Source: Candidatus Caldarchaeum sp. (GTDB lineage Archaea; Thermoproteota; Nitrososphaeria_A; Caldarchaeales; Caldarchaeaceae). From it: a stretch of 24,000 bases of DNA. The position numbers and the translations under genes were made by a program. Positions 4,063-24,000 of the stretch are shown here, one piece after another (positions within the stretch are counted from its first letter, which is position 1; every line of letters starts with the position of its first letter). The stretch lies in NCBI GenBank assembly GCA_038740895.1, contig JAVYLK010000020.1, forward strand, positions 2,581 to 26,580. The letters are read 5' to 3'. The notes under the pieces were generated by a model that was not told the DNA's origin, did not search any database, and was given only the letters and a program-made list of their open reading frames with translations.

Positions 4063-4072
4063 TTTATCTAAA
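4063..4072 (-). promoter_or_regulatory. TATA-box-like element for the class V aminotransferase
   Basis: The minus strand reads 'TTTAGATAAA', centred ~26 nt upstream of ATG 4041, in the 80-nt gap after the UbiD stop (4122). Confidence 0.4.
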
Positions 4073-4121
4073 TGTTCGCATGCGGAGCCTAGCTTAATGC
4101 TTGATGTTCTCAGGAGCGGGG

Positions 4122-5648: not shown

Positions 5649-5672
5649 GTCGCGTTATCGGCTCAACCCTGC

Positions 5673-5680
5673 TTATATAA
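5673..5680 (-). promoter_or_regulatory. TATA box for the UbiD-family gene
   Basis: 'TTATATAA' is centred 28 nt upstream of GTG 5648. Confidence 0.5.
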
Positions 5681-5763
5681 CGTTTACACACTTCGCCCTG
5701 CAAATCCTCGAAGGATTGACCGTGCCGGCGAAAGCAAGCCGAGCCATGTCCGGACAAGCTCCA

Positions 5764-5773
5764 TTTTTATATA
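5764..5773 (+). promoter_or_regulatory. TATA box for the class III aminotransferase
   Basis: 'TTTTTATATA' is centred ~27 nt upstream of ATG 5796. Confidence 0.5.
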
Positions 5774-5795
5774 GCCGACGACCCGTGCCGCATAC

Positions 5796-8615: not shown

Positions 8616-8637
8616 ATTCCTAGTCTCTAGAATAGAG

Positions 8638-9543: not shown

Positions 9544-10453
9544 GTCTTACCCTCTCCTTGGATAGGGTTGCGCCGAGGCCTGTGGGAAGAACTATGATAG
9601 TCGCTACCAGGATTGCGAAGGCTATCAGGGATTTGTACTCGGTTGAGAGGCCCAGCTGGACTAGGGCCACGACTCCGAAGCTCTCTGCAACTCCTAAAAC
9701 GTAGGAGGCTGTGAAGGCCCCGCTCACGCTTCCGATGCCGCCTAGTATTGAGACAGCGAACATGGGGATGAGGACATCGGCCCCAAGCTCGGGTATCACC
9801 CTGGTGTCCGCAGCCCTCAAGGTCCCGCCTAGAGAGGCCAGCATGCCCGACAGCATCCAAACCAGCACAATCACCGTGCCCGACCTAATTCCCGACAGCC
9901 TCGCCAGCACAGGGTTGCTCGCAAGACCCCTCAACGCCTTACCCAGCTTAGTCAGTCTCAGGAACAAAATCAAGGCTGCAGCAGTTGCCGCTGCAGCAAG
10001 CATCATCGACAGCCATAGAGTTGTAAGCCGGACGGGGCCGACGTCGAAAGGGGTGAAGGATTGAGTAAAAAAGTATGATTTCCTACCGGATATCTCCCAC
10101 ATCAGATACCTGAGCATTATCCCCAGACCAGCAGAAGCTATTATCAAGTGTAGAATTGAGGCTCCTCTTCTGATGAGCATTCTGAAAACCGTTAGGTACA
10201 ATCCCGAAGCGATGCCGCCCGTAATCACCATGCTCAAGCCCAGCCCGGCCCAGAAACCCAGTCCCACAACATCTGCGAAAAAGTACGTGACGAAGGCGCC
10301 TATTGCGAAAAACTCGGCGTGAGAAAGGTTTGGAAACTTCATGAGCTGATACTGGAAAGTCAGACCAACGGCTGCGAGGAAATAAATGCTGCCGGTGACC
10401 ACCCCGTTGATGAACGTCTGTAGGAGCTGAGTCTCTAGAGCCAAGCCTAGCAC
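9536..10453 (-). CDS. livH: ABC transporter permease, LivH-like (system 1)
   Basis: 305-aa polytopic ORF with N-terminal 'FINGVVTGSIYFLAAVGLTFQY', typical of LivH. GTG start. Confidence 0.85.
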   Translation of the reverse strand: MLGLALETQLLQTFINGVVTGSIYFLAAVGLTFQYQLMKFPNLSHAEFFAIGAFVTYFFADVVGLGFWAGLGLSMVITGGIASGLYLTVFRMLIRRGASILHLIIASAGLGIMLRYLMWEISGRKSYFFTQSFTPFDVGPVRLTTLWLSMMLAAAATAAALILFLRLTKLGKALRGLASNPVLARLSGIRSGTVIVLVWMLSGMLASLGGTLRAADTRVIPELGADVLIPMFAVSILGGIGSVSGAFTASYVLGVAESFGVVALVQLGLSTEYKSLIAFAILVATIIVLPTGLGATLSKERVRRD

Positions 10454-10470
10454 CGAGAGATCGGGGGATG

Positions 10471-10484
10471 ATAAAAATATTTGA
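10471..10484 (-). promoter_or_regulatory. possible internal TATA-like element between the binding-protein gene and livH-like gene
   Basis: The minus strand reads 'TCAAATATTTTTAT' in the 43-nt gap, centred ~24 nt upstream of GTG 10453. The spacing is slightly short. Confidence 0.3.
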
Positions 10485-10496
10485 TAGGAGTGTTGT

Positions 10497-11810
10497 CTAT
10501 CGGAGTTTTAGCCCCGCCACAGTGTCCCAGCTGCCTATGCTCTCAATCGTGTACTGTGCGGCTGGCTTGGCAACCCGCCATATGTCATAGTTTGCTAGTA
10601 CGGAGTCGCCGGACTGGTCCATCATCTTGTGGCCGCTGGGCCCTAGGTAGTGGTATGCAGCGGCCTTGACCTGGCTGGCTATCTTTGCGCCGTCGTAGGC
10701 TCCGGCCCTTGCAATCGCCTGCAACGCCACCATCGTGGCGTCGTATGTTGCGTCGCCGAAAAGCCCCGGATTCTCGTTGAACTCCCGCTTGTAGTCGTCG
10801 AGGAACTGTTTAGACGCCAGAGTCTCGGAAGGCGCGCTTGGGCTTGTGCCAGTCATCCTAGTCTGCAGGAGATACTCAGCGGCCTTGGCGTCGGCGAAGA
10901 ACGCCGTATCCCTCATAGCCTCCGAGCCAAAGCTCCGAATGTCGGTTAGACCAAGGTCTGAAGCCTGCTTCAAAGCCACTATCCCGCTCTCAACCCATGT
11001 AGCCCACAGAATAGCATCCACGTTGGCATTCTTTATCCTGCTCAGCTCCTCCCTGTAATCGCCCTTCTTGGGGTCGTATCTTATGCTGATGACCACGGAG
11101 TCGCCCAAGTTGGCTTTGATTCCCTCCTCGATACCGATGCCGTAGTCGTTGGAGACGACGAAAGTCGCCAGCCTCCTGACTCCCTGCGACCGTATGAGGT
11201 CGGCTAGTGCCTTGGTCTGGATTGCGTCGCTCGGAACAACTCTGAAGATGTACTGCCCTCCTACCTTCGAGATCGCGGCCGCTGTGGCCGACATGCTTAT
11301 CAACGGCACCTTCCTCTGGATAAGATAGTCTGCGATGGTCAAGACCTCGACGCTTGTGGCTGGGCCAACTATTACTTGAACGCCATTCACCTCAACCAGC
11401 TTCTTAACGGTCTCAAGAGCTTTATCGGGCAAGGCCAGACTGTCCTCAGCCATGATAGTTATTTTCGAGCCGGCAACGCCACCCCACTGGTTAACGAGTT
11501 TCTCAGCCAGCTTAGCGCCGTTAAGCATCTTTTGTCCTATCGGGCCCAGCTCGCCGCTCAAAGGCAGCATAACACCCACCTTAATCTCCTGAGGCAGCTG
11601 AGAAGTAGCCACTGTCCGCGTAACTGTCTGACCCCCAACGGTCACCGTTTCCCTCTGAATCACAGTCTGTGCTCCCGCTGCACCAGACCCAGCCAGATAC
11701 CCGCCCAAGCCAGCCACTACTCCGACTCCCACGACCGCTCCAGCTGCTGCCGCCGTGCTGATAGCTTTCCTCCGGCTGATCTTGGTTCTGGATGTTTCTT
11801 CTCTGGTCAT
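10497..11810 (-). CDS. ABC transporter substrate-binding protein, branched-chain amino acid (type I PBP, LivJ/K-like) family, Tat-like signal anchor
   Basis: The track ORF is 10497..11912. I prefer ATG 11810 because a TATA box (11832-11839) lies inside the longer ORF. The N-terminus 'MTREETSRTKISRRKAISTAAAAGAVVGVG' has a twin-arginine-like motif plus a hydrophobic anchor. The linker 'ETVTVGGQTVTRTVATS' is followed by 'IKVGVMLPLSGELGPIG'. Confidence 0.85.
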   Translation of the reverse strand: MTREETSRTKISRRKAISTAAAAGAVVGVGVVAGLGGYLAGSGAAGAQTVIQRETVTVGGQTVTRTVATSQLPQEIKVGVMLPLSGELGPIGQKMLNGAKLAEKLVNQWGGVAGSKITIMAEDSLALPDKALETVKKLVEVNGVQVIVGPATSVEVLTIADYLIQRKVPLISMSATAAAISKVGGQYIFRVVPSDAIQTKALADLIRSQGVRRLATFVVSNDYGIGIEEGIKANLGDSVVISIRYDPKKGDYREELSRIKNANVDAILWATWVESGIVALKQASDLGLTDIRSFGSEAMRDTAFFADAKAAEYLLQTRMTGTSPSAPSETLASKQFLDDYKREFNENPGLFGDATYDATMVALQAIARAGAYDGAKIASQVKAAAYHYLGPSGHKMMDQSGDSVLANYDIWRVAKPAAQYTIESIGSWDTVAGLKLR

Positions 11811-11831
11811 GCTGGTCTTAGCTTTTTTAGG

Positions 11832-11839
11832 AAATATAA
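11832..11839 (-). promoter_or_regulatory. TATA box for Liv-like operon 1
   Basis: The minus strand reads 'TTATATTT', centred ~26 nt upstream of ATG 11810. Confidence 0.5.
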
Positions 11840-12023
11840 GGCTTATGCTTGGTCGACAAAATTCAGCAGGCCACTGTCGGATAACCTGGTTTGGCGCACG
11901 CGCCGAGAGCACCAGGAGCTAGATCCTTAATGCCCCCGCATCGGCTCATACACAACCGGTAGACAGCGTTGCTTGTTATTCCACTAGCTCCCTGCAGCAA
12001 GCACGCCACCCATTTGTGAAAAC

Positions 12024-12032
12024 ATATTTATA
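12024..12032 (+). promoter_or_regulatory. TATA box for Liv-like operon 2
   Basis: 'ATATTTATA' is centred 28 nt upstream of ATG 12056. Confidence 0.5.
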
Positions 12033-12055
12033 CCTGCACGCAAAATTAGTCGAAC

Positions 12056-13384
12056 ATGGTCAGGCAGGCGGCTGTTTCAAACACTGTCGCCGCAGTTTTG
12101 ATGGTAGTTCTACTCGCTGCAGGGTTTGCTGGCGGATACTTTACCGCTGCGTTTACGGGGACGGGCCAGACGGAAATAGCGACAAAAACGGAATACGTGA
12201 CCGTTGGAGGAACAGTGACCCAGAGAATAACGATAACAGCCACAACGACTGTTGGACAAACTTCAGGCCCACCTCTAAAGATCGGTATGACAATCTCCAA
12301 GGACGGGTTGTTCGCGCCTCTGACGAGCGGGTATGAGAGCTTCAACAGGGAGTGGCTCAACTGGGTCAACAACGTGAGGAAAGGCGTCTATGTCAGAGAT
12401 CTTGGTGTGAGGGTTCCGGTTGAAATCATCATGTACGATGACAGGAGCCAGCCAGACCTAGCTATCCAACTCTACACAAAGCTCGCCACAGAGGACAATG
12501 TGCACATACTGGTGAGTCCCTACAGCGCCGACATAGGGATACAGCTAATCCCAACCGTCGCTGAGAAATACCGAGTGCCGATGATAATGGCGGAAGCAAG
12601 CACCAAGGACATGTGGAACAAGGGCTACAAGTACGTCGTCACCTCGATGGTTCCGTACTGGGAGGACAACCAGAACGGATGGTCAGCATCATACTTCGAC
12701 CTGCAGGCAAATACAAAATGGGCTAAAACAATAGCGTTCGTCGGCTGGGACATAACATGGGCAATCGACACCTACAACAGCGGAAAATCCCTCGCGAGGA
12801 AAGCCGGTCTCGAAATAGTTTACGACCAGCTGCTCACCCCCGGGACCACAGACTTCTCGGGAGTCATACGTGAGCTGAGGAGGATAAACCCCGACATCGT
12901 GTACCTTGCGATGTTCGGGCCGGTCAACGCTCTGTTCATAAGGCAGGCTGCGGAGGCAGGCTATTCGCCGAAAGAATACCACGTCATCGAATACGGCGCC
13001 GGGTTCGTCAAAAGCCTCGGACAGCTGTCCGAAAGAGTAACTAGCGAGATCTTTTGGACCCCGTCGTTCAAGTACTATCAGTCAGACCTCCTCGTAGACC
13101 TTATGAACAAAGCTGGACTCAGCTGGGTTGACTGGCAGTGGACGGAGCTGAGGATGATCATATTCCAGATGATTATCTCAGCTGTTGAGGAGGCTGGAAA
13201 GCTGGACCGGGAGGCGATAAACACCGCTCTACACAACCTGCAAATAATGACGGTTAGCGGCCCGCTGATAATAGGTCCTCAAGGCTACGGCAACATCGGA
13301 CTGGTCGCCATCCAGATACAGAACGGCAGGATACAGACAGTGTGGCCGAGAGACCTAGCGAACGCCACCTACCTCCACCCCTAA
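12056..13384 (+). CDS. ABC transporter substrate-binding protein, branched-chain amino acid (type I PBP) family, N-terminal membrane anchor
   Basis: 442-aa ORF with anchor 'AAVLMVVLLAAGFAGGYF', Thr-rich linker 'TEYVTVGGTVTQRITITATTTVGQTS', then 'LKIGMTISKDGLFAPL' and a PBP-like body. Confidence 0.85.
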   Translation: MVRQAAVSNTVAAVLMVVLLAAGFAGGYFTAAFTGTGQTEIATKTEYVTVGGTVTQRITITATTTVGQTSGPPLKIGMTISKDGLFAPLTSGYESFNREWLNWVNNVRKGVYVRDLGVRVPVEIIMYDDRSQPDLAIQLYTKLATEDNVHILVSPYSADIGIQLIPTVAEKYRVPMIMAEASTKDMWNKGYKYVVTSMVPYWEDNQNGWSASYFDLQANTKWAKTIAFVGWDITWAIDTYNSGKSLARKAGLEIVYDQLLTPGTTDFSGVIRELRRINPDIVYLAMFGPVNALFIRQAAEAGYSPKEYHVIEYGAGFVKSLGQLSERVTSEIFWTPSFKYYQSDLLVDLMNKAGLSWVDWQWTELRMIIFQMIISAVEEAGKLDREAINTALHNLQIMTVSGPLIIGPQGYGNIGLVAIQIQNGRIQTVWPRDLANATYLHP

Positions 13385-13389
13385 ATCTC

Positions 13390-14274
13390 ATGTTTTCCCT
13401 CCTTCTTTTTCTAGAATCGTTAATAGACGGTCTAGTCCTCGGCGGTATTTACGCTGTAATAGCTTTAGGACTGTCCCTAATCTACAGCGTTGCAGGCGTG
13501 CTCAACATATCGCACGGAGACTGGGTAATGCTAAGCGGGATGACGGCGTTCGTGCTGTTTTCATCGCTAGGCTCACAGCCCCTAGGATACCTCCAGTCAT
13601 ACTTGGCTGTTGTCCCCCTGTTCTTCGCCACGGGCCTGCTTTTTTACCTCGGCCTGATAAAGCCTGTCTCAAAAAGGCCCAAGCAGGAACTGCTGATAAG
13701 CTGCATCCTCATCACCTTAGGAGTATCATTCATCTTACAGGACGTAGCAGCCACCTCATTCGGCACCTTGCCTAAGAGCATCTATCTCGGCCTCAACCCC
13801 ATCACCTTCATCGGCATATCAATACCGTTCTTTAGGTTCGCAACCTTCATCCTCGTGGTCGCAGCAACGTTATCAATATGGCTTTTCCTGCGGAGAACGA
13901 TGACCGGCCGAGCCATGCGCGCCATCACGTACAACGTCGAAGTCGCGTCGTTCCTCGGAATACCCATCACCAGAGTTGCTGCCATAACCTTTGGGCTGGG
14001 AACCATGTTGGCCGCAGTGGGCGGGCTGATTTATCTCGGTAACGGTTTCCCGATAACTCCCTTCATAGGTATCTCCATCACAGTCAAGGCTCTGACCGTC
14101 CTCGTTGTGGGTGGGGCGGGGAAGCTGATCGGCTCCCTCGTCGGAGGCTTGGTACTCGGATTATCCGAAACACTCACAGGCGTGTTCATCTCATACTACT
14201 GGTCCCCAGCCATAGCAATCGTTCTCCTGCTAGTGGTTCTGATGGTGAGGCCGACCGGCCTCGTGAGTGAGTAG
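13390..14274 (+). CDS. livH: ABC transporter permease, LivH-like (system 2)
   Basis: The track ORF starts at 13342 inside the upstream gene. ATG 13390 lies 5 nt after the upstream TAA and gives 'MFSLLLFLESLIDGLVLGGIYAVIALGLSLIY', a typical LivH N-terminus. Confidence 0.85.
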   Translation: MFSLLLFLESLIDGLVLGGIYAVIALGLSLIYSVAGVLNISHGDWVMLSGMTAFVLFSSLGSQPLGYLQSYLAVVPLFFATGLLFYLGLIKPVSKRPKQELLISCILITLGVSFILQDVAATSFGTLPKSIYLGLNPITFIGISIPFFRFATFILVVAATLSIWLFLRRTMTGRAMRAITYNVEVASFLGIPITRVAAITFGLGTMLAAVGGLIYLGNGFPITPFIGISITVKALTVLVVGGAGKLIGSLVGGLVLGLSETLTGVFISYYWSPAIAIVLLLVVLMVRPTGLVSE

Positions 14275-15238
14275 AGTGGATAAACGTCTAGCCTTTCTCT
14301 GGGGAATAGTGTTATGGTCAGCGGTCCTACTGGGATTTTTTTCTCCACCCTACTATCAGAGCTTGTTGATTTTTCTGTTCATCTACGGAACACTTGCACT
14401 CAGTTACGACATAATGGGCGGACTTCTAGGATACATGAACCTAGGCATCATAATATTCTACGGAGTCGGGGCCTACGTTTTCGCTCTAACCATAAACTAC
14501 CTCCACAGCTTTCTCAGCGAGCTAGCCGTACTTTTTATCGCAGCAGCCTCATCTTCGGTAGCAGTGTGTGCACTGGTCTCGTTAACGTTGAGCTATCCTC
14601 TGTTCAGAGTGAAGGGGTTTTATTTTGCAGTCATAACTTTAGGGCTGATTGGGTTTGTCAACCTACTGGTAAGTTCCCCAGAGCTATCGCCGCTGACAGG
14701 TGGGTTTTCCGGAATTTCAATCAAGAGTCAAGTCACTCAGTATGGCAGCCAATTGGTCTCATACTTCCTAGCCCTCGCCGTCATCACCATCGGGGCAGTC
14801 GTATACGTCTTGGTGAAAAACAGCTCCTTGGGGCTTTTCTTCAGCTGTATCAAAGAAGACGAGGAGGCTTCTGAATGTACTGGAATAAACCTCTTCCGCG
14901 TCAAGCAGACTGCGTTTATCATCAGCAGTGTTTTAGCGGGATTGGCTGGAGTTGTGTACATGTGGTCTCAAACCTACACAAACCCCCGCTTCGTGTTCTC
15001 GATTGACTTCGCCTTTTTACCCATAACGATGGCTTTGTTAGGCGGGTCGGGGACTTTGGTCGGCTCATTCATAGGCGCGGCAATATTCACCGTCGTGTAT
15101 CAGCTCTTGATCATTAACATGCCCTCGCTCACCAAGTCGGTGATAGGCCTTGTTTTGATAGGGGTTGGGCTGGGGGCTTCGCATGGCTTAATCGGTTTAA
15201 GCAGGAAGGTCTTTAGCCGCCTACAAAATATTTCTTGA
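14267..15238 (+). CDS. livM: ABC transporter permease, LivM-like (system 2)
   Basis: 323-aa polytopic ORF with a GTG start overlapping the upstream gene by 8 nt. It carries 'LSYDIMGGLLGYMNLGIIIFYGVGAYVFAL', a LivM-type motif. Confidence 0.8.
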   Translation: MSRVDKRLAFLWGIVLWSAVLLGFFSPPYYQSLLIFLFIYGTLALSYDIMGGLLGYMNLGIIIFYGVGAYVFALTINYLHSFLSELAVLFIAAASSSVAVCALVSLTLSYPLFRVKGFYFAVITLGLIGFVNLLVSSPELSPLTGGFSGISIKSQVTQYGSQLVSYFLALAVITIGAVVYVLVKNSSLGLFFSCIKEDEEASECTGINLFRVKQTAFIISSVLAGLAGVVYMWSQTYTNPRFVFSIDFAFLPITMALLGGSGTLVGSFIGAAIFTVVYQLLIINMPSLTKSVIGLVLIGVGLGASHGLIGLSRKVFSRLQNIS

Positions 15239-15929
15239 CTACCTCACTCATCCGCAACTCGTTGACAGGCCCCTCCATCCTGACTTTTCCAGCCTCCAGA
15301 AGATAAGCTCTGCTCGCCAGCCGGAACGCCCTGCTGACATCCTGCTCAACCAACACAACGCTCAGATTAGTTGAGCTAACTAGTTTCTCCAACATAGCGT
15401 AGAGGTTTTGGACAGCTATGGGCGACAGTCCAGTGGAGGGCTCGTCGAGCAGAATGACCTTCGGCTCAGCCATCAGAGCTCTACCCAAAACAAGCATCTG
15501 TTTCTCGCCGCCGCTCAAAGTAGCTGCCGGCTGCCGGCTTTTCTCTCCGAGGACTGGGAAAAAATCGTAAACTCTCTCAAGACGCTTCCTAAGATCCGAC
15601 CGATGCCAGTATGCTCCGACTGAAAGATTCTCGAGAACTGTCAAGTTCCCGAAAACCCCGCTTCCGTCGGGCACGTACACTAATCCCTTTCGCACGAGTT
15701 TGTGTGGCGCTATGCCGTTTATGACCTGGTTTTGGTATATCACGTGTCCGGCGAACGGTTTTATGATTCCGGCGATTGTTTTGAGCAAAGTGGTTTTGCC
15801 GGCGCCGTTTGGTCCTATCACCGCCACAATCTCGTTGGCCTCTAGCCTCATGCTTATGTTCCAAAGAACCTGAAGCTTTCCGTATCCCGAGTTAAGACCA
15901 GAGACTTCAAGCAGAGCCAAACTGGCCAC
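15213..15929 (-). CDS. livF: ABC transporter ATP-binding protein, LivF-like (system 2)
   Basis: 'LLEVSGLNSGYG', Walker A 'GPNGAGKTT', signature 'LSGGEKQML', Walker B 'VILLDEPSTG' and C-terminal 'KKYFVGG'. GTG start. Confidence 0.9.
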   Translation of the reverse strand: MASLALLEVSGLNSGYGKLQVLWNISMRLEANEIVAVIGPNGAGKTTLLKTIAGIIKPFAGHVIYQNQVINGIAPHKLVRKGLVYVPDGSGVFGNLTVLENLSVGAYWHRSDLRKRLERVYDFFPVLGEKSRQPAATLSGGEKQMLVLGRALMAEPKVILLDEPSTGLSPIAVQNLYAMLEKLVSSTNLSVVLVEQDVSRAFRLASRAYLLEAGKVRMEGPVNELRMSEVVKKYFVGG

Positions 15930-16638
15930 CTAGGTAGACCTGCAGAACATCGGTATTCTTCACTATTTCATGAGGCGTCCCCTCAGCCAGTTTAGTGCCT
16001 AGATGCAGGACGAAGACCCTGTTGGCGAGCTTCATCAAAGCTGAAACGACGTGCTCGACGATCACAAACGCGACACCCTCCTCTCTCAGAAGTTTTATGT
16101 CTTCGGCAAGATCGTTAATCTCTTCTTCAACGAGGCCTGCGAAGGGTTCGTCCAGTAAAACAAGTTTAGCGCCCCCGACGACGGCCTTACCAAGCTCCGT
16201 TTTCTTCCGTACGATGAGGCTGCATTCTGAAACTGCCTCGTCGGCGTATGGCTTCAGCCCAAGTAATTCGATGATTCGCATCACCTCTGCCGATACTTTT
16301 CTGCTTTCGACTCTAAGGCGGGCAGCGACCCTGATGTTTTTCTCCACAGTCAGGCTGTGGAAAGGCCTGACGTTTTGAAAGGTTCTACCCACGCCCATCC
16401 TGAAGCGTGCGTGGGGCTTTGTGCGTGATATATCCAGCCCCCCTAGATAAATCTGACCCCGGTCCTGAGCTAGGTTCCCTGTCAAAATGTTCAACAGAGT
16501 TGTCTTCCCAGCTCCGTTGGGGCCTATCATCCCCAGTATATCATTCCTAAAAACCTCCATGTCTACGTCTCGCAGCACAACTTTCTTGCCAAAGCTTTTC
16601 TGAATGTTCTTGGCGACCAGCAGCTTCAAGTTGTTCAT
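15907..16638 (-). CDS. livG: ABC transporter ATP-binding protein, LivG-like (system 2), degenerate signature motif
   Basis: Walker A 'GPNGAGKTT', Walker B 'LVLLDEPFAGL', H-loop 'VIVEH' and C-terminal 'VLQVYLGG'. The position of LSGGQ reads 'CSLIV' (16210-16224). Confidence 0.9.
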   Translation of the reverse strand: MNNLKLLVAKNIQKSFGKKVVLRDVDMEVFRNDILGMIGPNGAGKTTLLNILTGNLAQDRGQIYLGGLDISRTKPHARFRMGVGRTFQNVRPFHSLTVEKNIRVAARLRVESRKVSAEVMRIIELLGLKPYADEAVSECSLIVRKKTELGKAVVGGAKLVLLDEPFAGLVEEEINDLAEDIKLLREEGVAFVIVEHVVSALMKLANRVFVLHLGTKLAEGTPHEIVKNTDVLQVYLGGQFGSA

Positions 16639-16832: not shown

Positions 16833-16947
16833 TGCGGGGGGTGGGATTTGAACCCACGAACCCCTACGGGACAGGGGCCTGAACCCTGCGCCGCAAGCCT
16901 CGCCCAGCTTAAGCCGAGCCTATTTGACCAGGCTTGGCGACCCCCGC
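16833..16947 (-). tRNA. tRNA-Leu(CAG) with a ~29-nt non-canonical intron in the D-arm region
   Basis: The reverse complement folds as follows: acceptor GCGGGGG/CCCCCGC; D-arm GCC..GGC with an AGCCTGGTCAAA loop; anticodon arm CAGGG-TTCAGGC-CCCTG (anticodon at 16879-16881); long variable arm TCCCGTAGGGGTTC; T-arm GTGGG-TTCAAAT-CCCAC; discriminator A. An extra ~29 nt (about 16893-16921) lies between the D-loop and the 3' D-stem. CCA is not encoded. Confidence 0.85.
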
Positions 16948-16981: not shown

Positions 16982-17007
16982 TTTTTCCAGCCCAGCCCAC
17001 GCATAAG

Positions 17008-17015
17008 CTTTTTAC
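17008..17015 (+). promoter_or_regulatory. TATA-like box for the tRNA 5' fragment
   Basis: 'CTTTTTAC' is centred ~26 nt upstream of 17038. Confidence 0.4.
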
Positions 17016-17037
17016 CGGCAAGACCCAGACAACAACA

Positions 17038-17071
17038 GGGCCGGTAGATCAGCCTGGAAGATCGTCCGCCT
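17038..17071 (+). tRNA. tRNA 5' portion only (positions 1-33): truncated, split, or att-site remnant
   Basis: The sequence reads GGGCCGG-TA-GATC-AGCCTGGAA-GATC-G-TCCGC-CT: the acceptor 5' strand, a perfect 4-bp D-stem and the 5' anticodon stem. AT-rich non-tRNA sequence follows. I could not find a matching GCGGA / T-arm / CCGGCCC 3' part anywhere in the window by eye. Confidence 0.6.
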
Positions 17072-17121
17072 AATCATAATATTAGATGGTTGGTTTGTAT
17101 CTCTTTCTTCTTGGTTTTTCC

Positions 17122-17619
17122 CTAATATTCTGTTGCAGTTAGGGCAATTATCCCTGTTTTTAAATGTTTGACAGCATTTACTTCAATACCATTCCCCCCA
17201 TGATAGTTCGGCTGACTGCCTGAAGGAACAAACGGAGGCTCCCCATGCTCTTCATAGCTGAAACATGGTGTTCCGTCCTCAACCCAATAGGGATATTCTA
17301 ACCTCTCTCCCGTCTTTAGCCTCTAAATAAAACAGCGGTTTATACATGTTTGGTATTCTAAACCTCCATCCCGCCGTCACGTCATACCTTCCCCCTAAAC
17401 CTCTCTCCCCTAACAACATAGTCTCCTTTATCGGGTATGTTTAAAGACTGCTGGCAAGGCTTACGGAGATGTGGTTGAAACCCCAGTGGTCTAGGACTGT
17501 TATGCTGAAGGTTCTGAGCTCCCCTGACCATGACGTAGTCTAGGTTTGTGAAGAGGGTTAGAGGCCCTATCCTGCCTCCGTCATCGCCTTTGAAGACTGC
17601 TTTTATTCTAAGCTCGGCC
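17122..17619 (-). pseudogene. frameshifted gene remnant, possibly the C-terminal third of a TnpB/OrfB-like (IS200/IS605-family) protein
   Basis: The track has no ORF in 17077-17619. On the minus strand, three overlapping open segments in successive frames (17382-17619, 17279-17419, 17122-17322) read like protein. The pieces 'AGWRFRIPNMYKPLFYLEAKDGREVR', 'YWVEDGTPCFSYEEHG' and 'GIEVNAVKHLKTG' loosely follow the TnpB pattern W.F....L.YKA...G..V..V.P.YTS..C..CG...D.NAA.NI, with most Zn-finger Cys lost. Confidence 0.3.
17294..17410. repeat. three degenerate direct copies of TCTAA(A)CCTCnnTCCC
   Basis: 17294-17314 'tattctaacctctctcccgtc', 17354-17375 'tattctaaacctccatcccgcc', 17395-17410 'ctaaacctctctcccc'. 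Confidence 0.5.
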
Positions 17620-18207
17620 TTAAGCCTTACGACCGGAGAGTCTTGAGGAGGTTTGATTGTTAGGTTGAAGTATGTGTCGAGGAGCTTGGGTAGAATCTCC
17701 TCTATCAGATGTCCAAAAACCTACAGGCCTGTCATATCCTGAAACCATAAGCTCTATGCTTGTTATGTTGAACACTCCTGGCTCGAAGTTCTTCAGCCTC
17801 ACCAATCCCCATCCAGCTCCGCCGGCATGTATGACTCCCTGCCAGCTGAGCAGGTCTGAAACAACCCTCCAAAACCCTCCCGTCTCCCTGAACAGGCATG
17901 TCGTGAAGACCTCTCCTATCGCGAACCTTCTCTCACCTTGGGTAAACCTGTAGCCGCCGGCGGTAATGTAGTAGGTGTAGAACCATGCGTAGCCCTGCAT
18001 CTCGGCGTAGCCTGTGGTGTTTGTGACGGAGGAGACCCTGTGGCCGGGGTTGTCAAGATTGACTGAGGCTCCGGCTATAGGCTGCTGGCTGGAGCAGTCA
18101 ACAACCCTGACGTAGAATTTGCCGAAAGGCGTTCCAGAAGGAGGAGGCTCAAGCCCGTAAACCGCAGGCAGAAAAAGCAGTATGATTAGAAACAGCCAGC
18201 ACCTCAT
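17620..18207 (-). CDS. secreted hypothetical protein with carboxypeptidase-regulatory-like (prealbumin-type) beta-sandwich signature
   Basis: Signal-like N-terminus 'MRCWLFLIILLFLPAVYG' followed by 'YVRVVDCSSQQPIAGASVNL'. ATG 18207 has a TATA box 28 nt upstream. Confidence 0.6.
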   Translation of the reverse strand: MRCWLFLIILLFLPAVYGLEPPPSGTPFGKFYVRVVDCSSQQPIAGASVNLDNPGHRVSSVTNTTGYAEMQGYAWFYTYYITAGGYRFTQGERRFAIGEVFTTCLFRETGGFWRVVSDLLSWQGVIHAGGAGWGLVRLKNFEPGVFNITSIELMVSGYDRPVGFWTSDRGDSTQAPRHILQPNNQTSSRLSGRKA

Positions 18208-18232
18208 CGAAGCTGTCGTTCTGGAAAGACGG

Positions 18233-18238
18233 TTATAA
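18233..18238 (-). promoter_or_regulatory. TATA box for the secreted-protein gene
   Basis: 'TTATAA' is centred 28 nt upstream of ATG 18207. Confidence 0.45.
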
Positions 18239-18282
18239 GCGGATAGCCGTCAAACAACTGTTAAGAGCCAAAGACAGTTACG

Positions 18283-18290
18283 CTTTTATC
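18283..18290 (+). promoter_or_regulatory. TATA-like box for the exonuclease/Cas4-like operon
   Basis: 'CTTTTATC' predicts a transcription start near 18313. That favours in-frame TTG 18316 over TTG 18298 as the start codon. Confidence 0.4.
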
Positions 18291-18297
18291 CAATAGG

Positions 18298-18942
18298 TTG
18301 TATAGCGATTGTGATTTGCTGTCAGATGTTATCAATAAGAATTCGATTGCCTATAAGCGTTACCAACCTTTAAAAAATTTTCTCTTAGAGAGAACAAACA
18401 GAACCATCTTGATCGATTTGGAAACGGACACTAGGAAGCTCAGGTTTTTAAACAATGAGAGAATCTTGGCGATTGGCCTACTGGAATATTCTTCTTCCGA
18501 CTGTCGCTCGTTGGTTCTCGCAAAAAATAATAACGAATCCGAGAAGAGACTGCTTAGTAGCTTCGACGAGTATTTGGATAATATAGAGCCGGATGTGGTC
18601 GTGGGTTATGGTATACGCTACTATGATATCCCTCTTCTTTCACAGAAGTACACTCTATACCGTAAGGGGCTTAAACTATACGGTCTGAGCGATATGATTG
18701 ACACATCCCTGATAGTTGACCTAGCACCATTCTATGGTTATCGGAAATTAAGCAATATAATCCTTAATCTAGACGGGTTTGATGCACACTGCAAGAGGTT
18801 GGAGCGAGAGTCAGAATCGTCTCAAAAAGCTAGATGGGTTTATGATAAGTGGAGGAAGAGCAGGCGGGGATTCAAAAAATATCTTGAGTGCGACCTGAAA
18901 GCCTGCCGTGAACTCTATGAACAGCTCTTGGGAGAGCTTTGA
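18298..18942 (+). CDS. stand-alone PolB-type DEDDy 3'-5' exonuclease (RNase H fold, COG3359/YprB-like)
   Basis: ExoI 'LIDLETD' (D40/E42, nt 18415-18423), ExoII 'GYGIRYYDIPLL' (D110) and ExoIII 'YLECDLKACRELY' (Y195/D199) occur in canonical order. There is no in-frame ATG near the 5' end; the start is TTG 18298 or, more likely, TTG 18316. Confidence 0.7.
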   Translation: MYSDCDLLSDVINKNSIAYKRYQPLKNFLLERTNRTILIDLETDTRKLRFLNNERILAIGLLEYSSSDCRSLVLAKNNNESEKRLLSSFDEYLDNIEPDVVVGYGIRYYDIPLLSQKYTLYRKGLKLYGLSDMIDTSLIVDLAPFYGYRKLSNIILNLDGFDAHCKRLERESESSQKARWVYDKWRKSRRGFKKYLECDLKACRELYEQLLGEL

Positions 18943-18943
18943 A

Positions 18944-20389
18944 ATGGGTTCTTTCACCGTTACGTGGGAGGATGTGTACGATTTTCTCAGGTGTCCGAAA
19001 ATCCTAGCCTTTAAGACGATGGGTCTGAGGGTACGCAGGCTGGAAAGACGGAAAACACCGCGTGTTCAGCCGAGTGTCGTAGGAAAGCTTGGTGAAATGC
19101 TGGCGGAGAAGGTAATTCCGTCAGTTACCCGTTCGGCGAAAGCAATGGACATCGGATCCTCTCTGAAAGAGACGTCGCCGAGTTTGTTCAGAGAGGTTGC
19201 AGAACGCCTACCATATCTGAAAAAACGGGTAAAGCTTGTGTCCGAGCAGGTGCTGGGAAGGCCTCTACACCATTCGAGTAATTTGGTTAAGAACATTGTG
19301 AAAAGAGATGTCGTCGGCCTAGTTAAGATTGCGTCTATACTAGGGGAAGAGTACGGGAGACTGAAGGTGGTTGGTAGGTGTGATGTGAAATGGCCCGCCC
19401 TACCATCCCATGCCGTACCTGACCTAATCTTCAAGTCGGAGAGGTCAGGGAGTTATTTGGTTGCGGAGGTAAAGAATGTGGAGAGAGGAGCATCGTCGTT
19501 AGATTCTTATCAGGCAGGGTTCTACAACACTTTAAGCAGGATGGGAGGGCTTGTTTTGGGTAGGAGAAGGGAGGGAGAAGCATTCATTCCCCGGCCGGAA
19601 ACCCTCCCTGCCGAAAAGATATCCACAGTACTGCTTTATCCACGCCATGGATTGGTTGAAGAAGTTGAGAAAGTATTCCGGCTGAAGAGCATACTGAAGG
19701 ATATTTGGGAATCTAAACAGCTAGGGCTTATGGGTTTCCAGCCGGAGTCGCCGAAAAAGGACTACTGCACAAAATGCCAGTGGAGAAAGTTTTGCAGCAA
19801 CTGGTCCAACCAAGGACCTAAAACGAGAACCTTGAGCGAAGTCGCCACGCCGTTACCGCTGATTTACGTAAAGGGTGCGCTGGAGAATGGACTCGATGTC
19901 GATACATACGTTTTCAGAGACTATGTATACGACATCATAGTGGAAATGAAAGTGGAGGTGCGCGACCAGATAATGAAGAGGCTGGACAGAGTTTACAGTC
20001 TAGAGTGGCAGCTACGCTTGCTTCAAAGTGACGGCGCCGAGGCTGAAATTAAGAAACTTGAAAAAGTCGCAGAACAATTGGAAATGAGAGAAAAGGCGGA
20101 AGCTACGCGTCTGATAGCTGATGAACTTGGGTTGTCAGTTAAACAGGCGTCGAAACTATACGAATTTACTTACTTGCGTTACCTTGGTTATGAGAAACCA
20201 ATAATAAGTAAAATAAACCGTGATATGGCCTCTGAGTTAGAGCCTTGGAAGAAAATAGTCAGAAAAACTCGGGTGAAGGCTTGGAAGGTTAGATTTTCTC
20301 AACCTCCGTTCCACTCGTTTTTGACCACGTTAGGATTTCCTCAAAAAAGCGAATATTTAATCAACAAAGCTTGGAACACTTGGGATTAA
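18944..20389 (+). CDS. Cas4-like PD-(D/E)xK nuclease with four-Cys Fe-S motif, fused to a ~190-aa helical C-terminal extension
   Basis: ATG 18944 lies 1 nt after the upstream TGA. Numbering from this ATG: 'YDFLRCPK' (C17), 'VPDLIF' (D160), 'VAEVKN' (E175/K177), 'YQAGFY' (QxxxY) and 'CTKCQWRKFC' (C275/C278/C284). The C-terminal part has charged coiled-coil-like 'EAEIKKLEKVAEQLEMREKAEA' and HTH-like 'LIADELGLSVKQASKLYEF'. Confidence 0.8.
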   Translation: MGSFTVTWEDVYDFLRCPKILAFKTMGLRVRRLERRKTPRVQPSVVGKLGEMLAEKVIPSVTRSAKAMDIGSSLKETSPSLFREVAERLPYLKKRVKLVSEQVLGRPLHHSSNLVKNIVKRDVVGLVKIASILGEEYGRLKVVGRCDVKWPALPSHAVPDLIFKSERSGSYLVAEVKNVERGASSLDSYQAGFYNTLSRMGGLVLGRRREGEAFIPRPETLPAEKISTVLLYPRHGLVEEVEKVFRLKSILKDIWESKQLGLMGFQPESPKKDYCTKCQWRKFCSNWSNQGPKTRTLSEVATPLPLIYVKGALENGLDVDTYVFRDYVYDIIVEMKVEVRDQIMKRLDRVYSLEWQLRLLQSDGAEAEIKKLEKVAEQLEMREKAEATRLIADELGLSVKQASKLYEFTYLRYLGYEKPIISKINRDMASELEPWKKIVRKTRVKAWKVRFSQPPFHSFLTTLGFPQKSEYLINKAWNTWD

Positions 20390-20689
20390 CACATCATTCG
20401 AGAACAGACATCCCTAGCAAAGCACGAAATACATGGGAAATACTGGTTAAACAATCGGCCGCAGGCATGTTCATACGGCGCGACCCTAGCATAGTGTTTC
20501 AATCAATTGACAGGCGGGCATCAGACCTAATAGTCTTCCGCTTGAAGGCTGTTAATCGTTTAAAGGCGTGGATTTGAGGTTGTAAGCCTCCCATACTCCC
20601 GCATGTTTGGAACGGAATGTTTTAGCCCAGTCCCAGCAGTCGTCGGAATGTGGGGAGAAATCTATTCACCTAACGTTTTTCTGCAAACG

Positions 20690-20696
20690 TTTAAAT
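20690..20696 (+). promoter_or_regulatory. TATA box for the DUF262/DUF1524 gene
   Basis: 'TTTAAAT' is centred 29 nt upstream of ATG 20722. Confidence 0.45.
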
Positions 20697-20721
20697 CATT
20701 TAAGGCCGCCGTTGAAAAGGC

Positions 20722-22335
20722 ATGGTCGAGCTCAGCAAGCTCTACGAAGACCTTGAAATGGGTTATTACGTGGTGCCGGAGATTCAAAGACCATTTGTTT
20801 GGAGAAACCAGCAAGTGGTGGCGTTAGCTAACTCGATTTTCAACAAGCTGCCCATTGGGGCTATTTTCATATGCGAAATACCTAACGACCTGTTAGAAAA
20901 CTACGAAAATCTGTTCAAACCTTTGACAGACGACCTAAAGCTAGCCAACGGTAGATACATGGTTATAGACGGTAGACAACGGCTCACTTCGCTGCTGTTG
21001 TTGAAATATGGCAGAATTCAAATAGGCGGTAAACAAAGACACGTACAGATTTACTTTAATCCTCTGGAGAATGATTTCATTCTAGCCCGTGGAAAACGCA
21101 AGCCCGGCGAGTACTATTTCCCAGTACCGGACATTCTTACCAAAGATACAGTATGGGAACTCTTAGAATCGGTAGAGGCAGAAGTCTCCACTAAAAACAC
21201 TCTCCAAAAACGTTTAGAAAGACTGCGTCAAATTTTCAACACTTACCAGATGCCAATCGTGTCCGTAGAAATGGACTGGAAAAATAGCGACCTCTTACAG
21301 GCATTTGATAGAGTATCGCACATGTTCGTCAACCTCAACGATAGAGGGACAAAGGTGAAGCTCCCCGACTTAGTATTAGCGCTTCTAACGGGCAAGACTG
21401 TGAAAGAAAGTGGAGGAGTCTTCAGGCAGCGGTTCCAGAAGTTCTTGGATGAGCTGGCGAAAAATGATTACGACGTTAATTCGCCGCCTCTCATCAGGAC
21501 GTACATGGCAATATCTACCGGGGAAACTAGGTTCAGGGAAGCCAAAGAGAAGTTAGAGCGTTTTGCAGCCAGTCAGCTCATGAAATATCTCGACGATACC
21601 AAAACAGCTGTAATGGCAACCGTTAAAATGCTCCGCGAATACGGCGTGAGACACAAGTATCTCAAATCTAGCTATTCACTTGTAATACCCTCCTTTTTCA
21701 TCCACAGACACATGCAGTCGAAAACTTATGCAAGTGAAGAGTTCAAAAAAGCGCTTGTCAGGTGGATTATCCTGGCTTCTTTTAACTGGCGTTATACGGG
21801 TAGACTGGAAGGGGACCTTAAAGAAGATATTGAAATGGCGAAGAAAACCCTTAATCCCGCTGAACTTATCACAAACCTCAGGATTAAAGATTTGTCTGAA
21901 GACGAGTTGTCAGGCGAGTATGACGAAAATCACATCAACCTTTTGTCGGTTATTTACGCAGTTAATGGCGCAAGAGACTGGGACATACAGAGGACACAGG
22001 GTGATATGTTGAAGGACCTGAATGATGAGGAAATATCAATTCACCACATCTTCCCAGTTGAACATTTAGAGCAGAAGGGTGTTAAAGAGGAAGTGCTTAA
22101 AAATGATGTGGCAAACATAACCATAATTTCTAAAAAAGCAAACCAAGCGATAGGAGACAAAACGCCGGAGAGTTATCTAAGTGAGCTCCGTAAGAAAGAC
22201 CCTACCCTTCTGGAACGACATTTAATACCGTCTGCCGAGAAATTATTAAAAGCAGAACACTACGAAGACTTTTTGAAGGAGAGGAGACGGCTGATAATTA
22301 ATGAATTCCATAAACACTTCAAGAGCCAAGCCTAA
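20722..22335 (+). CDS. GmrSD-like DUF262 (ParB-like NTPase) / DUF1524 (His-Me finger nuclease) protein, putative type IV restriction enzyme
   Basis: N-terminal 'YVVPEIQRPFVWRNQQV' and 'VIDGRQRLTSLLLL' (DGQQR-type motif). C-terminal 'ISIHHIFPVEHL' and 'NITIISKKANQAIGDKTPESYL' match the DUF1524 H...N...N pattern. Confidence 0.85.
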   Translation: MVELSKLYEDLEMGYYVVPEIQRPFVWRNQQVVALANSIFNKLPIGAIFICEIPNDLLENYENLFKPLTDDLKLANGRYMVIDGRQRLTSLLLLKYGRIQIGGKQRHVQIYFNPLENDFILARGKRKPGEYYFPVPDILTKDTVWELLESVEAEVSTKNTLQKRLERLRQIFNTYQMPIVSVEMDWKNSDLLQAFDRVSHMFVNLNDRGTKVKLPDLVLALLTGKTVKESGGVFRQRFQKFLDELAKNDYDVNSPPLIRTYMAISTGETRFREAKEKLERFAASQLMKYLDDTKTAVMATVKMLREYGVRHKYLKSSYSLVIPSFFIHRHMQSKTYASEEFKKALVRWIILASFNWRYTGRLEGDLKEDIEMAKKTLNPAELITNLRIKDLSEDELSGEYDENHINLLSVIYAVNGARDWDIQRTQGDMLKDLNDEEISIHHIFPVEHLEQKGVKEEVLKNDVANITIISKKANQAIGDKTPESYLSELRKKDPTLLERHLIPSAEKLLKAEHYEDFLKERRRLIINEFHKHFKSQA

Positions 22336-22348
22336 CTCTCTATTGAAG

Positions 22349-22356
22349 AAATTTAT
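22349..22356 (+). promoter_or_regulatory. TATA box for the Thr-rich protein gene
   Basis: 'AAATTTAT' is centred ~26 nt upstream of ATG 22379. Confidence 0.45.
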
Positions 22357-22378
22357 GTCAGCATCGTAGTATTGGTTC

Positions 22379-23008
22379 ATGAGTTCCCGGGTCATTATGT
22401 TGGCCGCTCTTCTTGCGGCTGGTCTTGTTGCAGGGTTTGGGGCCGGAGCTTTCATCAGACCAGTTACCCATACGGAGACTCTCCGATTAACACTGACCGA
22501 GAGCGTTGTCTCCACCACTACTGTTCCAACCACACTTACAACATCCACGACAGCAACGCTTACCAAACCCACTACAATGACAGCATATATAACACAGACC
22601 ACGAGCAAATTTATTACGACAACTGTCAGGTCAACCATAAGGACGACAACCACAAACACCGCCACCACATATGTGGTCTTTGTCACCACCGTCTACCCAG
22701 CTGAAAGGGGAACGGTGCTGGTTAGCGATAGAGGTAGTGGAGACAAGGAGACAAGACCCTTCACGCTAGACTCAACATCAGACCTCAGGCTGAAGCTAAG
22801 GATAACAGCTAGAGCAGACCTACGGTATGTCGGCCTAAGCTGGTATCTCTACCAAGTTGGTGCCACACGATACTTTAAGTCAGGCAGTATTGATGAAGAG
22901 CAGGGAGTGTTTGAGTTTTACCTAGCGGCTATACCTGCTGGAAACTGGTATGTCAAAATACTGGCTGCCAACTGCAACTGGGAGCTCATAGTCGAGAAGG
23001 TGACGTAG
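22379..23008 (+). CDS. membrane-anchored surface protein with Thr-rich stalk and C-terminal beta-rich domain (hypothetical)
   Basis: Anchor 'VIMLAALLAAGLVAGFGAGAFI', a ~70-aa Thr-rich stretch ('TTTVPTTLTTSTTATLTKPTT...TTTTNTATT') and a C-terminal domain ending 'NWYVKILAANCNWELIVEKVT'. Confidence 0.6.
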   Translation: MSSRVIMLAALLAAGLVAGFGAGAFIRPVTHTETLRLTLTESVVSTTTVPTTLTTSTTATLTKPTTMTAYITQTTSKFITTTVRSTIRTTTTNTATTYVVFVTTVYPAERGTVLVSDRGSGDKETRPFTLDSTSDLRLKLRITARADLRYVGLSWYLYQVGATRYFKSGSIDEEQGVFEFYLAAIPAGNWYVKILAANCNWELIVEKVT

Positions 23009-23061
23009 AGGTTCTGACATATCACCTGAGAAGTGTTCCCATTTTCACCCTACTCTCCCAT

Positions 23062-23069
23062 CTTATATT
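23062..23069 (+). promoter_or_regulatory. TATA-like box upstream of small helical-protein ORF
   Basis: 'CTTATATT' is centred ~32 nt upstream of ATG 23098. Confidence 0.3.
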
Positions 23070-23097
23070 GCCGCAGTTGATGGTATTTTTTATTACA

Positions 23098-23355
23098 ATG
23101 GATTGCCGTCGTAGGCTTGGGGAGGAGCTTGGCAGATGGTCTGGTTTCAGAGACGCTCTTCTACAGAATGAGAGAGAGGTGTTTGACAGGCTTGTGGATA
23201 ATTCTCTCAAGTATGCACGTGGTGCTCAGGCGTATTCTGAGAGGGGTGTTTTCGACCTTTTCGTCATGTCCTCGCTCCTGTCTCATGAGGAAAGACTCCG
23301 CATGCTTGAGAAGATGCTCAACGTAGGAATGAGGGTTGATGGAAGGCTTTTGTAG
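23098..23355 (+). CDS. small helical hypothetical protein (85 aa)
   Basis: The track ORF 23068..23355 begins at TTG. Internal ATG 23098 ('MDCRRRLGEELGRWSGFRDALLQNEREVFDRL') fits the upstream TATA better. I do not recognise a family. Confidence 0.45.
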   Translation: MDCRRRLGEELGRWSGFRDALLQNEREVFDRLVDNSLKYARGAQAYSERGVFDLFVMSSLLSHEERLRMLEKMLNVGMRVDGRLL

Positions 23356-23369
23356 CGTATGGTATTTGG

Positions 23370-23489
23370 ATGCGCAGGCTGCCCCAGCTCATGATAACTA
23401 CAGTCATTCTATTAACGGGTTTAATCATAGTTTTAGCCACGCTCGCCATGGTCACTAGGAATGCTTCGGGCTTCACGCATGGTGGTTGA
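23370..23489 (+). CDS. possible 39-aa single-pass membrane peptide
   Basis: Hand translation gives MRRLPQLMITTVILLTGLIIVLATLAMVTRNASGFTHGG. It starts 14 nt after the preceding stop. It is below the ORF-track cutoff, so support is weak. Confidence 0.3.
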   Translation: MRRLPQLMITTVILLTGLIIVLATLAMVTRNASGFTHGG

Positions 23490-23524
23490 CGTGAACGGCT
23501 TAACCAACAGGTCTTTCAAGCCTG

Positions 23525-23650
23525 ATGGGCAGGCCTGTGTTGATAGAGTGGTGCCCGCACTGCAGCAATAGAGCTGTACCAAGCCTATGTTGGCATGGTT
23601 GTGTTCATAATAGTGGCCGGGGGTATACAGGTGGTGTGAAGGCTAGTTAA
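23525..23650 (+). CDS. possible 41-aa zinc-ribbon-like peptide
   Basis: Hand translation gives MGRPVLIEWCPHCSNRAVPSLCWHGCVHNSGRGYTGGVKAS, with CxxC-x8-CxxxC spacing. It is below the ORF-track cutoff, so support is weak. Confidence 0.3.
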   Translation: MGRPVLIEWCPHCSNRAVPSLCWHGCVHNSGRGYTGGVKAS

Positions 23651-23696
23651 AGCGGCTCAGGAGGCTGACAAACATGATGGTGTCAATCATTTGACA

Positions 23697-23704
23697 TTTA
23701 TATA
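23697..23704 (+). promoter_or_regulatory. strong orphan TATA box with no obvious downstream ORF
   Basis: 'TTTATATA' sits in an AT-rich stretch. No start codon occurs at the usual ~25-30 nt spacing, and no ORF of 62 aa or more lies downstream within the window. Confidence 0.35.
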
Positions 23705-23785
23705 GTTTTAGACAACTGTTGTAATACTGCTCCATATTTTTAGATAGCTGTCGAGGCAAAAAATTGTCATCAACACCACAACAAC

Positions 23786-23942
23786 CTACGGTGTTTCCTA
23801 CGTGTTATAACAGCCTACTGTGTTATTATGGGTTCTGCTGCTTTGGGCAAATTGGTGTTCGACGGCTGTCGTTGGTCTGAAACAACGCCTGATTCACGTA
23901 AGCTTCGGCTTTCTACACAGTGTTTTCTCCATGTGTTATGGT
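23786..23942. repeat. iteron-like direct repeats, core CTAC-n-GTGTT(T/A)T
   Basis: 23786-23811 'ctacggtgtttcctacgtgttataac', 23814-23831 'cctactgtgttattatgg', 23913-23942 'ctacacagtgttttctccatgtgttatggt'. Confidence 0.45.
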
Positions 23943-24000
23943 AGTACGTTTCGGAGAATTTTTGACGCCTTGAAACCCTGCCTAAATCCCTGAAGTTTCG

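Follow-up and report, generated by a model that had tools for sequence, protein, structure and literature searches.

The stretch of 24,000 nt analysed in this work (the window) was taken from the uncultured hot-spring archaeon Candidatus Caldarchaeum sp. (GenBank assembly GCA_038740895.1, contig JAVYLK010000020.1, positions 2,581–26,580 of the forward strand) and carries two adjacent open reading frames (ORFs), here called ORF A and ORF B, whose products are predicted to be nucleases. ORF A (18298–18942, plus strand) starts with a TTG codon, ends with the TGA at 18940–18942 and encodes a 214 aa protein that resembles a stand-alone PolB-type DEDDy 3'-5' exonuclease; the TTG at 18316 may be an alternative start. 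ORF B (18944–20389, plus strand) is predicted to encode a 481 aa nuclease of an archaeal family that carries no annotation. In the ORF list a single nucleotide separates the stop codon of A from the ATG of B at 18944, and the translational coupling that an earlier note on this DNA had claimed was borne out, both genes lying where they had been placed. A conserved block at 18203–18260 (plus strand), upstream of ORF A, includes an archaeal element resembling a B recognition element and TATA box (BRE/TATA), GAAAGACGGTTATAAGC; the block is also kept in the related loci L015 and L006 and, to judge by its sequence, is likely the promoter of the A-B transcript.

The two predicted nucleases

The three motifs of PolB-type exonucleases are found in order on the plus strand of ORF A, namely ExoI (ILIDLETD with D40 and E42, 18415–18423), ExoII (GYGIRYYDIPLL with D110, 18625) and ExoIII (YLECD with Y195 and D199, 18880–18894). 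These five residues were read directly and are invariant in four close homologs, and the predicted DEDDy active site is intact. The protein passed the cutoff of the Pfam model DNA_pol_B_exo1 (PF03104; E 5.4e-8, 33 bits against a cutoff of 23), with only the ExoII region aligned, and fell below that of DNA_pol_B_exo2 (PF10108; 17.3 against 24 bits). Weak matches were obtained to the PHROG 'DNA polymerase exonuclease subunit' (E 5.8e-5) and, in the PDB, to the exonuclease domains of Pol delta and Pol II, while a word-indexed protein search gave three homologs. ORF A is like the stand-alone PolB-exonuclease-like proteins of PF03104 and PF10108 in its ExoI/II/III DEDDy motifs and in passing PF03104; it has neither a polymerase domain nor a gene for a polymerase close by.

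ORF B carries the motifs FLRCPK (C17), PDLIF (D160), AEVK (E175 and K177), YQAGFY (Q190 and Y194) and CTKCQWRKFC (C275, C278 and C284), and four of its five cysteines are the motif residues C17, C275, C278 and C284. In an alignment of 30 B homologs sharing 18–42% identity with ORF B (alignment A5), the residues D160, E175, K177 and Y194 never vary and C17, Q190 and C275 hardly do; the predicted D-E-K/QxxxY active site is intact. Every motif that the earlier note had quoted for A and B was found, and the catalytic residues are kept in the alignments of homologs. The cysteine motif varies across the family, being CX2CX5C in the subgroup of the window and CX3CPHH in many thaumarchaeal-type members, and the latter form points to another mode of cluster ligation, or to a zinc site, in some of the members.

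When 1.84 billion cluster representatives were searched exhaustively with a profile, 126 relatives of ORF B were recovered at E<=1e-3, of which 49 reached E<=1e-30. Most of them are 400–500 aa long and align with ORF B from end to end, and none of the relatives carries a name or a precomputed Pfam domain. Word-indexed protein searches gave only five homologs for ORF B and seven for alignment A5. The curated Cas4 models were not passed, the scores being 14.6 bits for PF01930 (cutoff 22.7) and 21.1 bits for TIGR00372 (cutoff 65), and distant B homologs scored the same on the Cas4 profiles. The best Cas4 match in PADLOC had E 1.9e-5, matches to PDDEXK_1 were all below threshold, the only match in a profile search of the PDB was a marginal one to the BpuSI nuclease motif, and PHROGs gave no match for ORF B.

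An AlphaFold model of ORF B built from alignment A5 reached a predicted local distance difference test (pLDDT) value of 87.7 and a predicted template modelling (pTM) score of 0.85, and replaced an earlier, unusable model from a six-sequence alignment (pLDDT 53). Residues 1 to ~300 are modelled as a PD-(D/E)xK core of the RecB/AddB/Cas4 kind that includes a helical insertion of ~120 aa. The rest of the protein (19841–20386, plus strand, residues ~300–481) is conserved in A5 and all-helical in the model, and this domain of ~180 residues has conserved motifs of its own, PLPL, EPW and LPxxS...W..W. The domain is covered by no Pfam, NCBIfam, PHROG or PDB match and is family-specific; it may serve in docking or in binding DNA. 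Foldseek searches of solved structures with the model placed the Fe-S nuclease domains of AdnA and AddB best, followed by Cas4 SSO0001 and MGME1 (top matches 9np6_A, with E 8.6e-3 and prob 1.0, 3u4q_B, 4ic1_G and 5zyv_A); the E-values are modest, and the template modelling (TM) scores are low because the sizes of the proteins differ. Among predicted structures (BFVD) the best matches were 'Cas4 family / RecB family exonucleases' of phages and archaeal viruses (E 5.5e-5 to 4e-3). All fold matches are confined to the N-terminal ~300 residues.

From its motifs and model, ORF B is predicted to belong to a new and rare archaeal family within the RecB/AddB/Cas4 superfamily of iron-staple nucleases. 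Like Cas4, including its solo and mobile genetic element (MGE) forms (COG1468, PF01930, TIGR00372), it has the D-E-K triad, QxxxY and one N-terminal plus CX2CX5C cysteines, and like solo-Cas4 and MGE-Cas4, with SSO0001 among its fold matches, it is encoded outside CRISPR loci. It differs from Cas4 in length (481 aa against ~180–200 aa, ~160–220 aa being typical of a single-domain Cas4 protein), in the insertion and the C-terminal domain, in the CX3CPHH motif that replaces CX2CX5C in many of its relatives, and in the absence of cas1, cas2 and an array. The possibility that ORF B is an ordinary Cas4 was ruled out by the scores below cutoff, the size, the extra conserved domain and the context. 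The label 'Cas4-like' given to it previously is therefore appropriate at the level of the superfamily, where motifs and fold agree, and not below it, since the protein scores below the curated Cas4 cutoffs, is 2.5 times as large as Cas4 and carries the additional domain. With AddB and AdnA (of AddAB and AdnAB) and with MGME1 the modelled protein shares the architecture of an iron-staple RecB-like nuclease and a predicted role at DNA ends; unlike AddAB and AdnAB it has no helicase or motor domain, and its partner is a separate DEDDy exonuclease and not a second RecB-type nuclease. The viral exonucleases matched by structure (PDDEXK_1, DUF2800), among them those of Haloarcula virus HCTV-1 and Thermus phage P23-45, have in common with the B family an occurrence on mobile elements. 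They share only ~10–14% identity with ORF B, are 250–310 aa long without the C-terminal domain, and usually have annealing proteins or polymerases as partners, not a stand-alone DEDD exonuclease.

Relatives of the pair and partners of the B family

The pair is kept in relatives. Loci L006–L010, from metagenomes, have an intact A of 234 aa, a spacer of 1 nt and an intact B of 473 aa, and L015, from a metagenome-assembled genome (MAG) of Ca. Caldarchaeum, has an intact pair with 89–98% nucleotide identity to the window. The ratio of nonsynonymous to synonymous substitution rates (dN/dS) is 0.25 for ORF B and 0.36–0.46 for ORF A, and both genes are therefore taken to be under purifying selection. 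The closest B homolog outside Caldarchaeum (L005) lies between a TrkA-like and an Mtd-like gene.

A recombination mosaic was noticed near 18741–18795 when the window was compared with L015. B is almost identical in the two (synonymous rate, dS, 0.014), most of A is divergent (dS 0.34) and resembles the L006 allele, and the breakpoint falls towards the 3' end of A, close to an indel of 18 codons.

For the wider family, 4 genome loci and 75 metagenome loci were fetched with the B alignment, their ORFs were called, the neighbours were clustered and exonucleases were sought; in all, 93 B loci form 20 clusters at 60% identity. A gene for an RNase H-fold exonuclease was found near B in 26 of the 93 loci, belonging to 8 of the 20 clusters. 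The exonucleases adjacent to B make up four groups that jackhmmer did not link to one another: the type of ORF A (PF03104-like), PF10108, an L024 type, and YprB-like DEDDh proteins of PF13482. The PF10108-type partner in L019 and L079 scored 29.1 bits against a cutoff of 24, and in the L024-type partner the ExoI and ExoII motifs are readable. When the groups were compared with hhalign the motifs lined up, with no statistical weight at an effective number of sequences (Neff) of ~1. Both gene orders occur, mostly with a gap of a few nt or an overlap; wider spacing was seen in L031–L033 (~400 nt), and the single match in cluster 7 (L023) is 1.9 kb away on the opposite strand. In L020 the order is integrase, winged helix-turn-helix (wHTH) protein, B, exonuclease and BglII. 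Recurrent adjacency to exonucleases that are not orthologous is good evidence for a functional two-nuclease module. Adjacency of A and B homologs across archaea, as raised in the earlier note, is found with mixed sequence groups in the place of A, and is not obligatory.

In all three YprB-type loci with enough flanking sequence (L029, L057 and L089) a gene for a Hel308-like helicase of superfamily 2 (SF2) is divergent from the exonuclease-B operon, and these loci may represent a three-gene helicase/exonuclease/nuclease module. The helicase scores as Hel308-like and has no match to DUF1998. It is a 928 aa protein with an N-terminal wHTH-like region, located at L029 1–735, L057 2594–5377 and L089 3–1550.

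Several other neighbours of B were recorded. In cluster 0 of the B family (L035–L062, L078 and others) there are two conserved proteins of ~174 and ~179 aa, for which no Pfam or PHROG match was found, and a P-loop protein of 587 aa. A GHKL/HATPase protein with a C-terminal HExxH zincin motif is encoded near B in a Nitrosopumilus chromosome (L017, 5068–6891) and in a MAG (L001, 3578–5113); L017 also has a stand-alone GmrSD_C fragment (9835–10329) with an IS630-like transposase nearby, and the neighbours of B in L001 further include a MORC-like ATPase, an HNH nuclease and a NOV_C helicase fragment. In L021 a 439 aa protein (2225–3541) with a DGS-containing motif ends 11 nt 5' of the B homolog; it appeared NurA-like by eye only, and a PDB sequence search gave no support for this.

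Genomic setting of the pair

Core metabolism genes and branched-chain amino-acid ABC transporters occupy positions 1–16638 of the window, and from about 17000 to 24000 the G+C content (GC) is 0.44–0.49, compared with 0.52–0.58 to the left. A Leu-type tRNA gene with a long variable arm and a 38-nt insertion in the D region is located at 16833–16947 on the minus strand (Rfam tRNA, 40.5 bits, E 1.2e-6); it was seen in the E-value mode of Rfam and was missed by ARAGORN and by the gathering mode of Rfam. The drop in GC starts at 17040–17075 (plus strand), where there is a truncated tRNA, a 5' half with the acceptor stem, the D arm and the 5' anticodon stem that reaches no further than the anticodon loop. 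Its 3' half was not found in the window and no copy was present in the fetched loci. The 5' half may mark the junction of an island or an integration event whose other end lies past 24000; a search of the window for att-type direct repeats found none. The A+T-richer block, the type IV restriction-like gene and the tRNA-linked region described in the earlier note thus correspond to the GC step, to a GmrSD gene and to the tRNA at 16833–16947.

The GmrSD gene (20722–22335, plus strand; PF03235 and PF07510, PADLOC HEC-05 at 2e-41) lies outside the pair, in a variable cassette slot (20510–23126) directly 3' of ORF B, together with a gene for a 209 aa Thr-rich protein (22379–23008, plus strand) that is probably a membrane or secreted protein. 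The window and L015 share homology (97.6%) up to ~20507, ~120 bp past the stop of B, where it breaks off abruptly, and again from 23126 on; in L015 the same slot is filled by a MjaV-type restriction endonuclease and an N6/N4 methyltransferase, a type II restriction-modification system. As different restriction systems occupy one slot, the pair borders an exchangeable restriction cassette, in the manner of a defence island. Membership of GmrSD in the module was rejected, since the homology to L015 breaks so soon after B and another restriction system is found there.

Neither tandem or spaced repeats nor cas genes were found in the 24-kb window, and no cas1, cas2 or array was seen in related loci. 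The lack of a CRISPR-Cas context noted before was confirmed by these repeat and cas-domain scans, and a role in CRISPR adaptation was rejected as cas genes and arrays are missing. We infer that the pair is cargo in a low-GC, tRNA-flanked, horizontally acquired island.

Last, a few minor features of the region can be given. A CarboxypepD_reg-like gene lies upstream of ORF A in divergent orientation. The 58-bp upstream block (18203–18260) has 91% identity to L001 6046–6103, in another MAG, where it stands 5' of an unrelated 560 aa HNH gene; the two sites may share a promoter, or the block may be a hotspot at which cassettes are exchanged by recombination. A copy of the tRNA at 16833–16947, 91% identical, lies between hisB and a SIS gene in L011–L014. 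On the minus strand at 17444–17521 there is a remnant of ~29 aa, 66% identical to the gene at L015 1–370 and cut by a stop, apparently a piece of a pseudogene on the left of the island.

Proposed DNA-end processing and its alternatives

The pair probably chews DNA ends, to judge from the families of its two products. ORF A would act as a two-metal exonuclease that removes nucleotides in the 3'-5' direction, and ORF B as a metal-dependent nuclease with a [4Fe-4S] 'iron staple' that would thread and cut 5' single-stranded ends in the way of Cas4, AddB and MGME1; the opposite polarity is suggested by analogy with the families to which the two proteins belong. The C-terminal helical domain of B would be the most likely part to dock the exonuclease or DNA, and A and B together would act on a free DNA end by trimming or degrading its two strands with no dedicated motor, a Hel308-like helicase being encoded next door in some relatives. 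In its working the module would resemble a nuclease of the AddB/Cas4 type that is paired, without a motor, with an exonuclease of the proofreading type. The link shown between the two is their genetic coupling, and a two-subunit complex A:B would be hypothetical. The reading preferred here, with confidence slightly short of an even balance, is that A and B form a translationally coupled DNA-end-processing module, carried as island cargo, that processes or destroys linear foreign DNA in conflicts between host and mobile elements; the island and the exchangeable restriction cassette beside the pair are the reason for preferring this role. The target would be linear invader DNA, including restriction fragments, rather than prespacers for CRISPR adaptation. 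A bolder form of the proposal, in which a B-family nuclease and an RNase H-fold exonuclease make up an undescribed archaeal anti-mobile-element system, a motor-less functional analogue of RecBCD/AddAB that would destroy the linear DNA of invaders or restriction fragments and be swapped as a two-gene cassette between defence islands and integrative elements, is considered doubtful. To our knowledge archaea are without RecBCD and AddAB.

A number of observations weigh against the preferred reading. No adjacent exonuclease was found in 12 of the 20 B clusters, so B can work alone. The largest B cluster (cluster 0, 21 soil loci) is convergent with Prim-Pol and is accompanied by a P-loop protein/ATPase and tyrosine integrases, as in an integrated element. 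In clusters 5 and 6, which are less than 60% identical to each other, B is fixed between a ferredoxin/DUF2283 gene and rpL3, a site that is chromosomal and vertically inherited in look and therefore suggests a cellular role. The proximity of restriction genes is weak evidence of cooperation. PADLOC-DB 2.0 contains no system matching the pair, with no matches for A and only weak Cas4 matches for B, which agrees with the earlier note, where the pairing was not recognised as any named defence system. At least four Caldarchaeum MAGs (L011–L014) have a copy beside hisG in which A and B are both frameshifted, and in L001 B is frameshifted and A is lost. One MAG with the decayed copy beside hisG also carries the intact L015 copy, and the decayed copies, second copies and swapped neighbours together indicate accessory, horizontally moving cargo. 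Owing to the contexts with PrimPol and integrases and beside rpL3, defence is only one of three live options. Of the suggestion in the earlier note that the pair is a defence or mobile-element module, the island and restriction setting and the PrimPol/integrase contexts elsewhere speak for it, while the fixed rpL3 site keeps a cellular role live.

A function for the mobile element itself, be it end processing for replication, recombination or integration, an anti-defence device or a leftover viral replication module with a split-off PolB proofreading exonuclease and a Cas4-like nuclease as travelling companions, is somewhat unlikely when taken by itself, and a role in mobile-element replication or recombination is nearly as likely as the favoured role in conflict. 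The N-terminal 300 residues of B find their best structural matches in the phage and archaeal-virus exonucleases (E down to 5.5e-5), the largest B cluster has the Prim-Pol and integrase surroundings just described, and further integrases lie near B in L018, L020 and L031. The family is patchy and rare, one assembly has two copies of which one is decayed, and the island adjoins a tRNA and a broken tRNA half. A virus of Bathyarchaeia has adjoining genes for a DEDDy exonuclease that is a separate protein, for an MCM and for a Cas4-like nuclease (PMC10848311). Against such a function, polymerase, primase, integrase and capsid genes are absent from positions 17000–24000 of the window and from the surroundings of the pair in L015, no relatives of the A and B families were found in IMG/VR scans or by tblastn of GenBank phages, PHROGs gave nothing for B, and the B genes linked to PrimPol have no exonuclease partner.

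A cellular DNA-repair module, with B as a nuclease of the solo-Cas4 type assisted by a 3'-5' exonuclease and sometimes by a Hel308-like helicase, can be proposed by analogy to MrfA/MrfB and is rated as rather improbable. Solo-Cas4 and MGE-Cas4 are known classes, solo-Cas4 is common in archaea and mostly vertically inherited, and the roles of the many archaeal non-CRISPR Cas4-like nucleases are open (PMC5704561); a repair branch with YprA and MrfB has been described (bioRxiv 10.1101/2025.09.15.676423). The ferredoxin-B-rpL3 arrangement shared by clusters 5 and 6 despite their divergence, the Hel308-like helicase and YprB-like exonuclease beside B in L029, L057 and L089 and the purifying selection on A and B fit a repair role. 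These three loci, with a helicase and an RNase_H_2 exonuclease next to B, partly resemble MrfA/MrfB (YprA helicase and YprB DEDDh exonuclease); the pair of the window is not MrfAB, as the window has no helicase and ORF A is of the DEDDy and not the DEDDh type, and MrfAB has no Cas4-like partner. Against a repair role, the pair in the lineage of the window is very rare and lies in an accessory block of low GC, and sister genomes have it replaced or in decay; a gene with a genuine repair function should be widely conserved across its clade. The frameshifts in L011–L014 and in the B gene of L001, where A is deleted, might instead indicate that the pair is decaying, non-functional DNA of horizontal origin whose adjacency is meaningless. 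This is highly improbable, as the copies in L006, L015 and the window are unbroken, keep every catalytic residue and have a dN/dS of 0.25–0.46, and as adjacency recurs with unrelated groups of exonucleases.

No description of an operon of a Cas4-like nuclease and a DEDD exonuclease was found in the literature. The nearest precedent may be the 'RecB family nuclease, TM0106 family' (TIGR03491), an uncharacterised bacterial fusion of Cas4-like and RNase H-like parts; this model was not matched when A, B and the partner exonucleases were scanned against NCBIfam. The B family and its pairing with exonucleases appear to be undescribed, and the enzymology of the pair is conventional.

The analysis thus defines a distinct, unannotated Cas4/RecB-like family with a C-terminal domain of its own, carried in defence-type islands and in integrative elements. 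Its members have acquired neighbouring genes for different 3'-5' exonucleases on repeated occasions, and in some cases for a Hel308-like helicase too. In the Caldarchaeum window the pair is a small two-gene cassette and offers the concrete hypothesis of a dual-polarity end-processing machine. If its role is defensive, it would add to the archaea a system that is absent from current catalogues; if it serves mobile elements, it would be a module that recurs in integrated elements of thaumarchaea and aigarchaea.

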